Shown here: piece by piece, positions 1 to 55,838 of the stretch | How the letters are laid out: each line of letters opens with the position of its first letter | How positions within the stretch are numbered: the first letter of the stretch is position 1 | Source: Pseudomonas sp. | Lineage (GTDB): Bacteria; Pseudomonadota; Gammaproteobacteria; Pseudomonadales; Pseudomonadaceae | Reading direction: 5' to 3' | NCBI RefSeq assembly: GCF_030690725.1 | Contig: NZ_JAUYGD010000004.1 | Span: 117,327-181,326 of the forward strand | Length of the DNA: 64,000 nucleotides | Made by a program: the position numbers and the translations under genes | Notes under the pieces: model-generated | Told to the model about the DNA's origin: nothing | What the model saw: only the letters and a program-made list of their open reading frames with translations | The model's database searches: none

Positions 1-83
1 AACAACTTGGCCGCAGCCAGTATAGGCGGGCGATGGTTGGATCTTGTGACAGGACGTCCGAAGGTACTAGAGGTATTTGCGCA

Positions 84-791
84 ATGTTTGGACGTCTTGG
101 CAGGTTCTGCCTGATTGGCTTATGGCTTTCGTGGATGCCGTTGTCGGTGACCGCCGCGGAGCAGGATGGGCTGCTCAGGGATTTGGCGCGGATTGCCCCT
201 GGGCTTAATCAGCAGGCATTGCAGCATGCGCTGGCGGCCATGCAGTGCGCGGTCAATCATGGCGCTGAGCCTGCGCGCCGACTGGCGGTGATCGATTATT
301 CGCGGCCTTCCACCGAGCGGAGGTTGTGGATCTTCGATCTGCAGCGCAAGCGTTTGCTGTTACGTGATTTTGTCGCTCACGGGCGCAAGTCCGGGGAGAA
401 CTTCGCCGAGGCGTTCTCCAATCGGTTGGGCAGCCATCAAAGCAGTCTGGGGTTATTCCGCACCGCTGAAAGCTACAGCGGCAAGCATGGTTATTCCCTG
501 CGTATGGATGGTCTGGAACCCGGACTGAATGATCTGGCCCGCGAGCGTGCCATCGTGATTCATGGCGCCGGTTATGTGAACCCGCGTTGGGCGCAGAAAC
601 ATGGCCGTATCGGCCGCAGCCTGGGTTGCCCGGCGGTGCGCCCGGAAGTGGCGCGGATGGTGGTCGATCAGCTCAAGGGCGGGCAGTTTCTCTTCGCCTG
701 GCATTCCAATCAGCGCTGGTTGAAAGCCTCCGCGTACCTGGATTGCAAACCGCAGCGGGTGGCGGCGCTGAGTCGTGTCGGGGAAGGCTGA
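84..791 (+). CDS. Murein L,D-transpeptidase catalytic-domain protein (YkuD_2-like)
   Basis: N-terminal signal-like segment; IVIHGA...GRSLGCPAV catalytic His/Cys motif; GAGGT RBS before ATG 84. Confidence 0.85.
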   Translation: MFGRLGRFCLIGLWLSWMPLSVTAAEQDGLLRDLARIAPGLNQQALQHALAAMQCAVNHGAEPARRLAVIDYSRPSTERRLWIFDLQRKRLLLRDFVAHGRKSGENFAEAFSNRLGSHQSSLGLFRTAESYSGKHGYSLRMDGLEPGLNDLARERAIVIHGAGYVNPRWAQKHGRIGRSLGCPAVRPEVARMVVDQLKGGQFLFAWHSNQRWLKASAYLDCKPQRVAALSRVGEG

Positions 792-792
792 G

Positions 793-927
793 AGCCTGCT
801 CATGATCTCGCGAGCTAGAGCCATACAAGGCGAAAACAGGCGAGGAAGCGGAGTTTACTGATGTAAATGAGCATTCCGAGCCTGTTTTCAACGCAGTAGG
901 GCCGACGCGCAGCAGATCATTAAGGCT
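793..927 (+). repeat. Structured intergenic repeat, copy 1 (MITE/REPIN-like)
   Basis: Core GAGGAAGCGGAG-TTTAC-N4-GTAAA-TGAGCATTCCGAGCCTGTTTT shared with 3595, 36572 and 55697 copies; terminal IR ATGATCT/AGATCAT; lies between convergent stop codons. Confidence 0.85.
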
Positions 928-2710
928 ATTTCTGCTCGCTCTGCGGGGTAACCCGCAGCACTTCCTCAATGGTGGTCAGGCCGGCGGCGACCTTCTGCGC
1001 GCCGGACAGTCGCAGGCTGCGCATGCCTTCCTTGAAGGCATGTCGACGCAGCGCAATCAGGTCGGTGTCGGCGGTGATCAGCGGTTTCATCGCATCATTG
1101 ATCAGCATGATTTCATACACCCCCGCGCGGCCGCGGTAGCCGGTGTCGCGGCACTCCAGGCAGCCGACGGCACTGCAGGCCTGGGTCGGCAGCGGCGCAC
1201 TCCAGGGTTTGGTCAGGCTCTGCCAGCCGTCTTCATCCAGGGTCTGCGGTGCCTTGCAGTGTGGGCACAGGGTACGCACCAGGCGTTGCGCCATCACGCC
1301 GAGCAGGGTGGCCTTGAGCAGGTAGTGCGGCACGCCCAGCTCTAGCAGGCGAGTGATGGCGCTGGGTGCATCGTTGGTGTGGAGCGTCGAGAGTACCAGG
1401 TGGCCGGTGAGCGCCGCCTGGATTGCCATCTCGGCGGTTTCCAGGTCGCGGATTTCGCCGACCATAATGATGTCCGGGTCCTGGCGCATCAGTGCGCGCA
1501 CCCCGCTGGCGAAGGTCAGGTCGATATTGCTCTGCACCTGCATCTGGTTGAAGGCCCCTTCGATCATCTCGATCGGGTCTTCGATGGTGCAAACGTTAAC
1601 CTCAGGCGTGGCCAGTTGCTTGAGCGTGGTGTACAGCGTGGTGGTCTTGCCTGAGCCGGTCGGTCCGGTGACCAGAATGATGCCGTTGGGCTGGCTGGTC
1701 ATGCTCTGCCAGCGCTTCAAGTCATCGGCGGAGAAACCCAGCTGATCGAAGCTTTTCAGCAGCACTTCTGGGTCGAAAATCCGCATCACCATCTTCTCGC
1801 CAAAGGCGGTGGGCAGTGTCGACAGGCGCAGTTCTACTTCACCGCCGTCCGGGGTCTTGGTCTTCACCCGGCCGTCCTGCGGTTTGCGCTTTTCTGCAAC
1901 GTTCATCCGCCCGAGGCTTTTCAAGCGACTGACGATGGCCATGGTCACCTGGGGCGGGAATTGATAGACGGTGTGCAACACTCCGTCGATGCGAAAACGC
2001 ACGCTGCCCTGTTCGCGACGTGGCTCGATATGGATATCGCTGGCGCGCTGGGTAAAGGCGTACTGGAACAGCCAGTCGACGATATTAACGATATGCGCGT
2101 CGTTGGCATCGGGCTCTTGGTCTTGGGCGCCAAGGTTGAGCAGTTGCTCAAAGTTGCCGGCCCCGCTGATTTTCATATCACCGGCCGAGGCGCCGCTGAC
2201 CGATTTGGCCAGGCGGTAGAACTCTACGGTAAAGCGCTGGATCTCCGTCGGGCTGGCCACCACGCGCTTGATCGGACGCTTAAGCACATGGATCAGATTG
2301 GCTTCCCAGCTGTGCACCAGTGGTTGGCTGCTGGCGATGGTTACACTGTCGTTGTCCACCGCCACAGCGAGAATCTTGTGGCGCTGGGCGAAGGCGTAGG
2401 ACATCAGCGGGGTGACGGCGGCGACATCAATCTTCAGTGGGTCAATTCGTAGATAAGGCTGCCCGGATTGTTCCGCCAACCAGACGGTCAGATCTTCTAG
2501 GTCAAGCTTCTTGCCGGGCTTCTTCAGGTCGTCGAGTTGTTGGGCCGCGAGAAATTCCAGCGGGTGCTGCTTATTGTTGACCGCGCTGCGGCGGATCGTC
2601 AGACATTGCTCGGCATTGTCCTGATTGGTCCGACCCTGGGCGACCAGCTCACGCAGCAGATCGGCGAGCTCCAACTGGCGATCATGGGCGGACGAGACGA
2701 ATGCGGACAT
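926..2710 (-). CDS. Orphan GspE/PilB-family secretion ATPase
   Basis: Walker A GPTGSGKTT, Asp box TIEDPIE, RQDPDIIMVGEIRD, His box LSTLHTND, tetra-Cys CPHC...CLEC. Confidence 0.92.
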   Translation of the reverse strand: MSAFVSSAHDRQLELADLLRELVAQGRTNQDNAEQCLTIRRSAVNNKQHPLEFLAAQQLDDLKKPGKKLDLEDLTVWLAEQSGQPYLRIDPLKIDVAAVTPLMSYAFAQRHKILAVAVDNDSVTIASSQPLVHSWEANLIHVLKRPIKRVVASPTEIQRFTVEFYRLAKSVSGASAGDMKISGAGNFEQLLNLGAQDQEPDANDAHIVNIVDWLFQYAFTQRASDIHIEPRREQGSVRFRIDGVLHTVYQFPPQVTMAIVSRLKSLGRMNVAEKRKPQDGRVKTKTPDGGEVELRLSTLPTAFGEKMVMRIFDPEVLLKSFDQLGFSADDLKRWQSMTSQPNGIILVTGPTGSGKTTTLYTTLKQLATPEVNVCTIEDPIEMIEGAFNQMQVQSNIDLTFASGVRALMRQDPDIIMVGEIRDLETAEMAIQAALTGHLVLSTLHTNDAPSAITRLLELGVPHYLLKATLLGVMAQRLVRTLCPHCKAPQTLDEDGWQSLTKPWSAPLPTQACSAVGCLECRDTGYRGRAGVYEIMLINDAMKPLITADTDLIALRRHAFKEGMRSLRLSGAQKVAAGLTTIEEVLRVTPQSEQK

Positions 2711-2842: not shown

Positions 2843-3517
2843 TCAGGCGCGCTTGAGCGTTTTCACTCCTTCAGCGGTGCCGAGCAGCAGCAGATCGGCC
2901 GGACGGGCAGCGAACAGGCCATTGGTGACCACGCCGACGATGGCGTTGATCTCGCGCTCCAGGGTCACCGGGTCGGTGATGCTCATGTTGAACACGTCGA
3001 GGATGATATTGCCGTTGTCGGTCACCACGCCTTCGCGGTACACCGGGTCGCCGCCGAGTTTGACCAGCTGGCGCGCTACATGGCTGCGCGCCATCGGGAT
3101 CACTTCCACCGGCAGTGGGAAGGCGCCGAGGACCGGCACCAGCTTGCTGGCGTCGGCAATGCAGATAAAGGTCTGCGCCACAGCCGCGACAATTTTCTCG
3201 CGGGTCAGGGCCGCGCCGCCGCCCTTGATCAGATTGAGGTGCTCGTCGCTCTCGTCGGCGCCGTCGACATAGAACTCCAGGTCGCTGACGGTGTTCAGCT
3301 CATACACCGGAATGCCATGGCCCTTGAGGCGTGCGGCGGTGGCTTCGGAGCTGGCGACGGCGCCGTCGAACTCCATCTTGTGCTTGGCCAGGGCATCGAT
3401 AAAACAGTTTGCGGTGGAGCCAGTGCCGACTCCGATCACACTCTTGGCGTCGAGTTTGGGAAGAATAAAGTCGACAGCAGCCTGGGCGACGGCTTGCTTG
3501 AGTTGATCCTGGTTCAT
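2843..3517 (-). CDS. rpiA: Ribose-5-phosphate isomerase A
   Basis: [25 protein letters not shown] motifs. Confidence 0.98.
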
Positions 3518-3552: not shown

Positions 3553-3582
3553 ATTATAGCGCGGCTGGGCCGGCGACGTTAA
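3553..3582 (-). promoter_or_regulatory. Candidate sigma70 promoter of rpiA
   Basis: Minus strand TTAACG-N18-TATAAT upstream of rpiA ATG. Confidence 0.5.
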
Positions 3583-3594
3583 AACCCTGCCTGT

Positions 3595-3733
3595 CAGGCC
3601 GCGTGAGAGCGTAGCGAGCGAAGGTCAGGCAAGGCAAAAACAGGCGAGGAAGCGGAGAGTACTGTTGTACATGAGCATTCCGAGCCTGTTTTTAACGCCG
3701 CATCAACGAGCGCAGTAGCTCTCGCGTGGTCTG
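3595..3733 (+). repeat. Structured intergenic repeat, copy 2
   Basis: Same core (CAAGGCAAAAACAGGCGAGGAAGCGGAG...ATGAGCATTCCGAGCCTGTTTTTAACGC); imperfect 16-bp terminal IR CAGGCCGCGTGAGAGC/GCTCTCGCGTGGTCTG. Confidence 0.85.
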
Positions 3734-36538: not shown

Positions 36539-36571
36539 TTGAGGATCTCTTTTTTATGATCGCGCTGCATA

Positions 36572-36750
36572 AAAGGTTGAGCGAGCTAGAGCCAGGCTAG
36601 GCGCAGATGCGCGAGGACGCGGAGTTTACGAGCTGTAAATGAGCAGTACTCGTTTCACTCGCCCTTGCGGGCCGCCCTCCGGGCGTTCGGTGACAAGTCA
36701 CCGTCCAAACACATCTGCTACAACGCCTGGCCGACGCGCAGCCAGCCGTT
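36572..36750 (+). repeat. Structured intergenic repeat, copy 3, with nested 57-bp insertion
   Basis: GCGAGCTAGAGCC...GAGGACGCGGAGTTTAC-N5-GTAAATGAGCAGT[insert 36648-36704]CC...CATCTGC..AACGCCTGGCCGACGCGCAGC. Confidence 0.8.
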
Positions 36751-36752
36751 AG

Positions 36753-37298
36753 TCAGACCGTCGGAGGGCCGGGGTAGCCGCAGTGGGCCCATGATTCGGC
36801 TCGGCTATACCAGCTCATCATCACCAGCTGCAGCAGCGAGGCGTGGCCCATTTTCAGCAGGCCAATCGAGCTGTTCTGCCAGCGCTCGAGAAACGCCTGC
36901 ACATCTGCGGGCGATGCGTTTTCCCAGCTGCCCCAGACTCCGGTCAGCGGACCACGGGTGATCGGCATGGCGAGCACGTCGAACAGCTGCACGGTCAGCT
37001 TGAGCAATTCCGGCGAGACGTGATTAAGGCTGTAGTCGAGGCTGGCGAGGGTGCCTTCGACGGCTTGCGGCATCTTCTCGGTCGTTACCGCGCCGGCCAG
37101 CATCACCGGGATCAAGGCATGCAGAAAGGCCAGATCGGACTCGCGGATCACCGCAAAGCCGGCTTTCGGCGTACTCGCCGAACAGCCGCTGAGGCTGGCA
37201 GTAAGGCCGGCGGTGGCGAGAAAGGCTGAGCCCATCAGGCCGACCTTGAGCAGGTTGCGCCGAGTCAGGGCCGGCGCTTCAAGCGTGGTGTTGTGCAT
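36753..37298 (-). CDS. laoB: Tat-signal accessory protein, LaoB-like
   Basis: LTRRNLL twin-arginine signal; GYPGPP C-terminus; between laoC and laoA. Confidence 0.8.
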   Translation of the reverse strand: MHNTTLEAPALTRRNLLKVGLMGSAFLATAGLTASLSGCSASTPKAGFAVIRESDLAFLHALIPVMLAGAVTTEKMPQAVEGTLASLDYSLNHVSPELLKLTVQLFDVLAMPITRGPLTGVWGSWENASPADVQAFLERWQNSSIGLLKMGHASLLQLVMMSWYSRAESWAHCGYPGPPTV

Positions 37299-54897: not shown

Positions 54898-55692
54898 ATG
54901 AGCCACGTTCCCAGCGACAAGCCTTTTACCCTGGCCGGCCGTACTTACCAGTCGCGTCTGTTGGTCGGTACCGGCAAGTACAAGGATCTTGAGGAAACCC
55001 GCCTGGCCATCGAGGCTTCGGGTGCCGAGATCGTCACCGTGGCGGTGCGCCGGACCAATATCGGGCAGAACCCGGGCGAGCCGAACCTGCTGGATGTGAT
55101 TTCGCCGGACAAGTACACCATCCTGCCGAACACCGCTGGTTGCTACGACGCCGTTGAGGCGGTGCGCACCTGTCGCCTGGCCCGTGAGCTGCTCGACGGT
55201 CACAAGCTGGTCAAGCTGGAAGTGCTGGCCGATCAGAAGACCCTGTTCCCCAATGTGATCGAAACCCTCAAGGCCGCCGAAGTGCTGGTCAAGGACGGCT
55301 TCGACGTGATGGTGTACACCAGCGATGACCCGATCATTGCCCGCGAACTGGCGGCCATGGGTTGCATCGCGGTGATGCCGCTGGCCGGTCTGATCGGTAC
55401 TGGCCTGGGCATCTGCAATCCGTACAACCTGCGCATCATCCTCGAAGAGGCTACCGTTCCGGTATTGGTCGATGCCGGCGTCGGCACCGCGTCCGATGCC
55501 ACCATTGCCATGGAGCTGGGCTGTGAGGCGGTGCTGATGAACAGCGCGATTGCCCATGCGCAGAACCCGATTCTGATGGGCGAGGCGATGAAGCACGCGA
55601 TCATCGCCGGACGCATGGCCTACCTGGCCGGGCGCATGCCGAAAAAACTCTATGCCAGCGCTTCTTCGCCGCTGGATGGCCTAATCAAGTAA
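54898..55692 (+). CDS. thiG: Thiazole synthase
   Basis: [27 protein letters not shown]. Confidence 0.99.
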
Positions 55693-55696
55693 GGAC

Positions 55697-55817
55697 TACG
55701 ATTTGCTGCGCGTCGGCCCTGCTGCGTTAGAAACAGGCTCGGAATGCTCATGTACAAAAGTACACTCCGCTTCCTCTCCTGTTTCTGCCTTGCATAGCTC
55801 TAGCTCGCGAAATCGTA
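55697..55817 (-). repeat. Structured intergenic repeat, copy 4
   Basis: Reverse complement nearly matches copy 1 across the core; perfect terminal IR TACGATTT/AAATCGTA. Confidence 0.88.
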
Positions 55818-55838
55818 AAAGCACTTTAAGAGCACAGC

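Follow-up and report, generated by a model that had tools for sequence, protein, structure and literature searches.

How can a short intergenic repeat keep its base pairing while the sequences of its arms, and seemingly even of its ends, are exchanged, and what moves such a repeat within and between genomes? The question is raised by a 64,000-nucleotide stretch of a Pseudomonas sp. genome (RefSeq assembly GCF_030690725.1, contig NZ_JAUYGD010000004.1, positions 117,327 to 181,326 of the forward strand), hereafter referred to as the window, in which a preliminary description had noticed four intergenic hairpin elements with compensatory base changes and "non-conserved termini", and had tentatively ascribed them to a structure-recognised mobile element of the Y1/HUH type or to a mobile structured RNA. 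All four copies are present at the places given in that description, and they are related to each other. As outlined in the following, the element is very probably a non-autonomous miniature transposable element with inverted repeats (MITE) that is moved in trans by DDE transposases of the IS5 family, and the part of it that is conserved most widely is its hairpin core.

An iterated nhmmer profile gave 103 matches in the source genome (4.67 Mb, 92 contigs, 60.9% G+C), which merge to 97 loci, four of them in the window. When 66 copies were aligned together with 30-base flanks, the similarity ran 11-20 bases past the outer stem at which the element had first been delimited. The original boundaries thus were too narrow, and the real ends are terminal inverted repeats (TIRs) of 16-19 bp, which enclose a hairpin of about 92-105 bases and bring the total length to about 135-145 bp, or to up to about 225 bp in the presence of optional internal hairpin modules. 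There are at least three subfamilies (A, B and C; see Table 1 for their ends) that have a common core and differing ends. Within each subfamily the ends are conserved, and the variable outer stems of the preliminary description turned out to be the inner portion of these TIRs. One circumstance that the preliminary description had named as speaking against its reading, conserved termini beyond its boundaries, holds true as far as the termini are concerned. In the window, the termini were partly hidden because the right ends of copies 1 and 4 are damaged and the ends of copy 3 are degenerate. The individual stems are largely as they had been described: ATGATCT/AGATCAT occurs in copy 1 and TACGATTT/AAATCGTA in copy 4, the stems AAAACAGGC/GCCTGTTTT, GGAA/TTCC and TTTAC/GTAAA versus TGTAC/GTACA are all present, as are the motifs GCGGAG, TGAGCA and AACGC, the one exception being the weak outer stem (5/8) that had been assigned to copy 3.

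The mobility that had been suspected for these elements can be seen directly at orthologous sites. The region around copy 4 was searched in 250 genomes of the genus, and three species have the element at the orthologous place, several others being without it. The site is filled in the source genome and in the relatives G033, G210 and G040, with TAA on both sides, and it is empty in G169 and G229. The empty site of G169 reads ..AAG TAA GAGCACAGC ATG, and the filled site of the source genome reads ..AAG TAA (134-bp element) TAA GAGCACAGC ATG. Four more clean cases (L055, L060, L052 and L061) were obtained from 30 copies of the three closest species, the flanks of which were mapped onto the source genome; in each of them the relative has TTA-element-TTA and the source genome a single TTA. 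All five clean duplications are TTA in the orientation of the element, the duplication of subfamily A being 3 bp long (TNA, mostly TTA), and among the subfamily A copies of the source genome the two flanks still often agree. Subfamily B copies are flanked by 4-bp YTAR-like tetranucleotides, as they are duplicated by the insertion sequence (IS) ISPst12, and one subfamily C copy has TCA on both flanks.

Which transposases could be responsible? The TIR of subfamily B, CAGGCCGTTGAAAAA, is the TIR of ISPst12. At the transposase loci of five relatives, a 1.33-kb IS was found that occurs in at least seven copies in genome G014, is bounded by the exact subfamily B TIR, and carries the annotation ISPst12 in a plasmid of P. 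putida. Its transposase has 374 aa and scores 264 bits on the IS5 model NF033581, and related copies show perfect 4-bp duplications (CTAG, TTAG, TTAA, CTAA, CTAC). The TIR of subfamily C, GAGGGTGTTTACAAAA, in turn agrees with the TIR GAGGGTGTTTACAAAAC of a 1177-bp IS (L207, L208), whose proteins are about 57% identical to ISPsy19, an element that is located on plasmid p1448A-A. For ISPsy19, a 3-nt duplication and the TIR GAGGGTGTAGACAAAAT have been described (PMC3189936). The flanks of L208 are TTA at either end. These ISPsy19-like transposases match the IS5 model NF033580 and not, like that of ISPst12, NF033581, and BLASTP gave no similarity between the two types. The subfamily A TIR GAACCTGTTTACGATCT is a variant of the ISPsy19-type TIR and agrees with it at about 10/16 positions. 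The duplications of 4 bp (ISPst12) and 3 bp (ISPsy19-like) fit the sequences flanking the MITE copies. As for differences, these IS elements are 1.18-1.33 kb long and encode transposases, and they have only the terminal 16-17 bases in common with the MITE; the core is not a deletion product of either of them. It is the joint occurrence of TIRs with target duplications, of polymorphic insertions, and of ends identical to the TIRs of autonomous IS elements that makes a MITE mobilised by IS5-family transposases the highly probable identity of the repeat.

With regard to the spread of such transposases, the ISPst12 protein (L089/L092 of G014, L093-L113) has 100% identical matches listed for Stutzerimonas, Pseudomonas juntendi and Halopseudomonas, the hosts being S. 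stutzeri, S. chloritidismutans, S. kunmingensis, P. juntendi and Halopseudomonas oceani. It also occurs in one contig binned as Aeromicrobium. This suggests a very recent horizontal spread or, in case of the Aeromicrobium contig, possibly a contamination.

The source genome itself contains nothing with the MITE TIRs at the distance of an IS and gave no ISPsy19-like match, and its IS5 content consists of one copy with unrelated ends, which for this reason was dismissed as partner, and one fragment. As the cognate transposase is not present in the source genome, its roughly 97 copies are relics. The one intact IS5-family element is located at C65:66900-68100 (L028) and encodes a transposase of 326 aa with 365 bits on NF033581; the ends of this element are similar to the type of MITEPsy1/ISPsy2 (..CTGAAAAAGAC..) and not to the TIRs studied here. 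The start of contig C89 (C89:1-1563, L029) carries the gene of a group II intron reverse transcriptase/maturase (TIGR04416, 317 bits), and a truncated IS5-family transposase gene comes directly after it.

The family is decaying in the source genome by internal deletion. Other ortholog comparisons revealed internal deletions, half elements and tandemly repeated ends. Half or centre-deleted copies are located at C28:73779-73879, C46:16656-16774 and C8:53069-53183, and they are full in relatives. At the site that is orthologous to window positions 55810-55830, G210 (L033) and G040 (L035) have two and three tandem AAGCACTYTAA units, which correspond to the last 11 bases of the element plus the duplication, and at the copy 4 site of G051 (L025) there is a short AAGCACTYTAA remnant only.

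The structure-recognised Y1/HUH element that had been considered initially would be either a REPIN moved by a RAYT or a palindromic element of the IS200/IS605 type. It is true that the entire element is a hairpin, that the source genome has three Y1_Tnp genes (C8:6509, C59:180631, C50:78225), and that GTAG-like tetranucleotides are present in both arms of subfamilies B and C. Y1 elements make no target-site duplication, whereas duplications are evident at the empty sites described above; the element shares its TIRs with DDE IS elements of the IS5 family, and no copy of it flanks or adjoins any of the three Y1 genes. A REP/REPIN identity was dismissed for the lack of a copy-flanked cognate gene and for the duplications, and an IS200/IS605-type identity, which implies subterminal hairpins, an insertion 3' of a fixed tetra- or pentanucleotide and neither TIRs nor duplication, because TIRs and duplications are both present. 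With these findings, a Y1/HUH transposition is extremely improbable.

If the ends thus identify the element as an IS5-type MITE, why is its interior a conserved hairpin? Each of the window copies folds into one long irregular hairpin, as described before, and is more stable than its dinucleotide shuffles (z-scores of -3.9 to -5.7 on the "+" strand and of -3.2 to -4.5 on the reverse strand). The initial observation that pairing is kept through compensatory changes, with several covarying stems, could be extended to the whole family: in a FastTree of the 97 copies, 104 same-branch double changes were counted at paired columns, and random non-partner columns gave 9.3 +/- 3.6 double changes with a maximum of 27 in 2000 draws. 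The counts per pair indicate clean switches with few intermediates, one apical pair being T-A in 49, G-C in 46 and something else in 1 of the copies. The same holds for an order-wide alignment of 40 sequences, mainly from other families of the order with a few copies of the genus, in which 94.9% of the cells are paired as compared to 79.9% after shuffling and 31-43% in slid controls. In this alignment, 22/30 pairs change on both sides, and in the copies of other families the sequences of the inner stems are entirely different. A model-fitted class-wide alignment has 95.6% paired cells versus 74.6% in the shuffled control.

The pairs do not tolerate all mismatches alike. In the tree of 97 copies, changes from Watson-Crick pairs to G·T occurred 45 times and changes to A·C 10 times (37 versus 7 on terminal branches alone), which means that G·T is tolerated about 4.5 times as often as A·C, and the same strand preference was found in the order-wide (28 versus 10) and class-wide (19 versus 3) alignments. 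Unpaired columns are symmetric, with 75 C>T versus 70 G>A and 62 A>G versus 57 T>C changes, and therefore a mutational strand bias could be ruled out as the cause of the G·T excess. The G·T excess together with the symmetry of the unpaired columns argues for a selection on the "+" strand as a single strand, which may be RNA or DNA alike, and in this respect the preliminary description appears to have pointed in the right direction.

The asymmetry also bears on the idea that the hairpin is kept without any selection on the fold. Long palindromes are known substrates for template-switch mutation, and an intrastrand template switching ("quasipalindrome correction") could copy one arm to the other, while changes in the TIRs would be mirrored because one transposase must bind both ends; mirrored TIR changes as predicted by such a binding do exist, since copy 1 has ATGATCT/AGATCAT in place of ACGATCT/AGATCGT. 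Arm copying would nevertheless be symmetric, whereas the 4.5-fold G·T excess is strand-specific, which argues against arm-to-arm copying as the main cause. Moreover, throughout the phylum the asymmetric internal loops, the bulges and one fixed purine-purine mismatch have been retained and not erased, and the inner stems are 40-60 bases away from the ends, which is beyond a plausible transposase footprint. Such an origin of the pairing is therefore quite improbable.

Blastn detected the core in 41/201 genomes sampled across the order, and a covariance model of the 92-position core detected it in 74/151 class genomes drawn one per family, often in multiple copies and with scores of 70-100 bits, and in 34/151 genomes of a phylum-wide draw that included families outside the class; as these draws are samples, the counts mean found among the genomes searched. 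Copies in distant families carry further, different IS5-like TIRs, and the same core is found between the TIRs of two transposase lineages. The apical 40-45 bases, which include GCGGAG and ATGAGCA, are near 90% identical. A particular G·U pair is preserved in 39/40 (order-wide) and 18/19 (class-wide) sequences and almost never is replaced by G-C or A-U. For the conserved "loops", a reading as two tandem G·A motifs plus bulges of one base each is possible, and their invariance would be explained thereby, because tandem G·A motifs and bulges are unable to covary. A comparison with Rfam, which had been proposed as a check of novelty, assigned no family: the window has no match at the gathering threshold of Rfam 15, and with E-value thresholds the short and long forms gave chance-level matches only (E 0.11 or worse). 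Also, no publication was found that details the repeat family.

Several of these and other points weigh against the view that we are dealing with an IS5-mobilised MITE and nothing else. An ordinary MITE explains neither the phylum-wide conservation of the loop sequences of the core, which exceeds that of the TIRs, nor the strand preference. The filled and empty sites cover subfamily A only, with none for B or C, and in subfamily A the left duplication often differs at its first base (GTA or CTA instead of TTA), so that a duplication of 2 bp, with a T as terminal base of the element, would be a less likely alternative. An IS with the exact subfamily A TIR was found neither in the source genome or at 30 transposase loci of five relatives, nor among the ISPsy19 relatives in the 250 genomes of the genus. 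As to the enzymes, we infer a mobilisation by the ISPst12 and ISPsy19-like transposases from the identity of the TIRs. Finally, the statistics of the genomic context given below are based on crude gene calls by codon usage (4,100 genes, 87% of the genome).

A hairpin with fixed non-Watson-Crick motifs could either be needed for the propagation of the element or be read by a conserved host factor. Taking the second possibility further, the core might be a strand-specific functional module (its most likely form then being a structured RNA, or else a fold of single-stranded DNA) that interacts with a factor conserved throughout the Pseudomonadota and has spread on MITEs, with TIRs swapped between at least two unrelated IS5-family lineages; we consider this a tentative proposal, with the odds rather against it. 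In such a case, the fixed G·U pair, the tandem G·A motifs and the optional hairpin domains would constitute a recognition surface, and the MITE would be a delivery vehicle that puts the module at gene ends. In its RNA version, which is to be regarded as similarly doubtful, the MITE would be a mere vehicle, the shape of the "+" transcript would be recognised by the host factor, and this function, not transposition, would keep the loops invariant across the phylum. The near-invariant G·U pair, the loops that read as non-covarying tandem G·A motifs with single-base bulges, the predominance of G·T over A·C, for which the strand is the same in all data sets, the optional and covarying hairpin modules that are found in internal loops only, the use of one core by the TIRs of two unrelated transposase lineages and its presence in about half of the sampled families of the class all would agree with a structured RNA. 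On the other side, no convincing promoter was recognised inside the element in a reading of the consensus, Rfam is without a match, and G·T wobble and tandem G·A pairs are stable in single-stranded DNA too.

Copies longer than about 140 bp contain extra segments at fixed internal sites, namely one of about 28 bases that follows CAAGGC, one of about 56 bases that follows ATGAGCATT, and a 16-base piece. They occur in subfamilies A, B and C, form small hairpins that themselves covary, and were not found outside the repeat family. The segment after ATGAGCATT is the 57-base insert (I2) of copy 3, which is present at one internal position in at least eight copies of subfamilies A, B and C. It was considered whether this insert is an independent mobile unit, and this was rejected, as it is confined to this family and its position is constant. 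A chimeric copy at C55:74419-74589 has the left end of subfamily B, the right end of subfamily A, and I2 in addition. As this chimera joins B and A ends, copies recombine within the common core, and recombination is one route by which the core could change its ends; the core would have passed from one TIR set to another either in this way or by a stepwise change of the TIRs.

With respect to the genes, 96/97 loci are intergenic, and about 70% of the loci adjoin a stop codon. At 54 loci, the stop codon of an opposite-strand gene is found directly at the right end of the element, and at 20 loci the stop codon of a same-strand gene is found at the left end; at 48 loci from other families, this ratio of right antisense to left sense stops is 26 versus 16. 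The targets are TA-containing sites, which in a genome of 61% G+C often are stop codons, and as the duplication rebuilds the stop, copies come to adjoin gene ends. The association with stop codons is explained by this TA-containing target in a G+C-rich genome and the stop-restoring duplication. An intrinsic preference for TTA over TAA was considered as the basis of the 54:20 orientation bias, and the copies off stop codons, which are few, do not show it. The bias also is in conflict with the idea of a functional RNA: with most copies antisense to the gene that they abut, it is the "-" strand that a read-through mRNA of the adjoining gene would contain, and it is the "+" strand on which the fold is kept best.

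The position at gene ends raises the question of whether the element might be a mobile bidirectional terminator or 3'-end stabiliser, with a G+C-rich stem between an A-run and a T-run, whose copies persist because they are harmless or useful at these places. In the source genome, the stem CAGGC/GCCTG is indeed bracketed by AAAAA and TTTTT, which would serve both strands, the adjacency to stop codons is as expected, tail-to-tail gene pairs are enriched (20/92 loci versus 573/4008 pairs genome-wide), and the same tail-repeat-tail bias has been described for P. fluorescens repeats (PMC2718517). In many other families, in contrast, the T-run is reduced to TTT followed by C or G (e.g. GGAAA/TTTCC), the long and interrupted hairpin is not flagged by a simple terminator scan, a strong terminator would be polar at copies 3 and 4, which are located between co-directional genes, and an invariant loop sequence is not required for termination. 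A terminator role is possible in the source genome and, on the whole, rather unlikely. A coding role of the element could be rejected. There is no conserved reading frame, as the paired substitutions alter codons freely and there is no common stop. A small protein starting from the conserved GGAG...ATG was also examined: compensatory changes alter its codons at all positions, subfamily A lacks an in-element stop, and the variable loop length breaks the frames of the other strand.

Among known repeats, ERIC corresponds to the element in architecture and evolutionary style, its sequence being dissimilar. The studies of Hulton in 1991, Sharples & Lloyd in 1990 and Wilson & Sharp in 2006 are said to describe ERIC as an intergenic and transcribed imperfect palindrome over its whole length of about 127 bp, reportedly with compensatory changes and with longer variants that have extra segments at fixed internal sites. 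No partner transposase is known for ERIC, and it is not known to occur outside Enterobacteria and Vibrio. An identity with ERIC/IRU was dismissed, as a blastn search with a consensus-like copy gave no match in 5,426 complete E. coli genomes. Neisseria has the Correia elements (NEMIS), MITEs of high abundance that target TA and whose conserved interior contains functional motifs. They resemble the MITE studied here in abundance, target, conserved interior and the effects expected at the RNA level, and they differ in belonging to another sequence family; we know of no partner transposase for them and of no occurrence outside Neisseria.

In case of MITEPsy1 of P. syringae pv. phaseolicola, transposition has been caught in vivo, and the partner is ISPsy2 of the IS5 family (PMC3189936). 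Like the element studied here, MITEPsy1 is about 100-140 bp long, non-coding, bounded by IS5-family TIRs and moved in trans, and it duplicates TA-containing targets (CTAG / YTAA). Unlike our element, it has the TIR GGAAGGTCTGAAAAAGCC, an unrelated interior and a narrow distribution, and a conserved covarying core is not reported for it. Both MITEPsy1 and MITEPsy3 were excluded as identities, as their TIRs and partners differ.

The repeat R178 of P. fluorescens is 101 bp long, has an internal 11-bp inverted repeat, and occurs in 9-28 copies in three genomes (Silby et al. 2009, PMC2718517). It agrees with the core in size, in the inner AAAAACAGGC/GCCTGTTTTT repeat and in the copy numbers in genus genomes of 6-7 Mb, and going by its description it may be this core. 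Its listing gave no TIRs, no target, no partner IS and no analysis of structure (PMC2718517). BRE, finally, is a hairpin repeat of about 90 bp that is widespread in a class, gives rise to small RNAs in Bordetella, forms tandem arrays, and has no described TIRs (Hot et al. 2011, PMC3110155). It has the string CAAGGCAAAAA, followed by a G+C-rich stem, in common with the core. The rest of its sequence differs and the apical motifs of the core are not present, and BRE was therefore rejected as an identity. The Bordetella BRE also carries GCGAGCGCAGCG (PMC3110155 supplement), which resembles arm motifs of subfamily C. These similarities could be due to chance or to common modules.

MITEs are usually defined by their ends, with the interior regarded as filler. 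Here, it is the interior that is conserved: the sequence, shape and non-canonical motifs of the core hold across the sampled phylum, and it is the ends that change from one transposase lineage to another. Should the core have its own function, it would be among the most widespread uncatalogued structured elements in Proteobacteria and would exemplify how bacterial transposons spread a regulatory or structural module. If the fold is instead needed for transposition, it would point to a single-stranded, strand-specific step in the transposition of the IS5 family, the mechanism of which is, to our knowledge, poorly known. In either case, copies that sit on stop codons and fill intergenic gaps will interfere, in many genomes, with the annotation of gene ends, with assembly and with the prediction of terminators, and annotators could mask them by means of a covariance model of the core.

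Table 1. Ends of the three subfamilies, and positions of the four copies and of adjoining features in the window.
Feature	Position	Strand	Left end	Right end	Basis or remark
Subfamily A			GAACCTGTTTACGATCT	AGATCGTAAACAGGTTC	
Subfamily B			CAGGCCGTTGAAAAAC	GTTTTTCAACGGCCTG	
Subfamily C			GAGGGTGTTTACAAAAG	CTTTTGTAAACACCCTC	consensus
Copy 1, subfamily A	792..925	+			alignment to subfamily A consensus
TGA stop of upstream gene 33..791	789..791	+			at expected left target duplication of copy 1
Stop (TAG on minus strand) of convergent gene 926..2710	926..928	-			adjoins copy 1 right end
Copy 2, degenerate B-like TIRs, C-like arms	3595..3733	+	CAGGCCGCGTGAGAGC	GCTCTCGCGTGGTCTG	
Copy 3, long form, degenerate TIRs	about 36566..36752	+			left boundary approximate
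Optional internal module I2 of copy 3, three small hairpins	36648..36704	+			
Stop (TGA on minus strand) of gene 36753..37298	36753..36755	-			adjoins copy 3 right end
Copy 4, subfamily A, 5-base deletion in right TIR	55693..55826	-			
First TAA of the copy 4 target duplication, also stop of gene 54898..55692	55690..55692	+			empty-site comparison
Second TAA of the copy 4 target duplication	55827..55829	+			empty-site comparison

The four window copies (Table 1) illustrate the range of locations. Copy 1, the left TIR of which (GAGCCTGCTCATGATCT) is complete and the right TIR of which is shortened by small deletions, occupies the entire gap between two convergent genes from stop to stop. Copy 3 lies between two co-directional minus-strand genes, and copy 4 is likewise flanked by co-directional genes. 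Copy 2, an ortholog of which was found in relative G210, is flanked by CTGT and CTTG and is located between divergent genes, in their promoter region. Immediately to its left, at window positions 3553-3582 on the minus strand and upstream of the minus-strand gene 2843..3517, there is a promoter-like site with TTAACG, an 18-nt spacer and TATAAT (10/12 matches).

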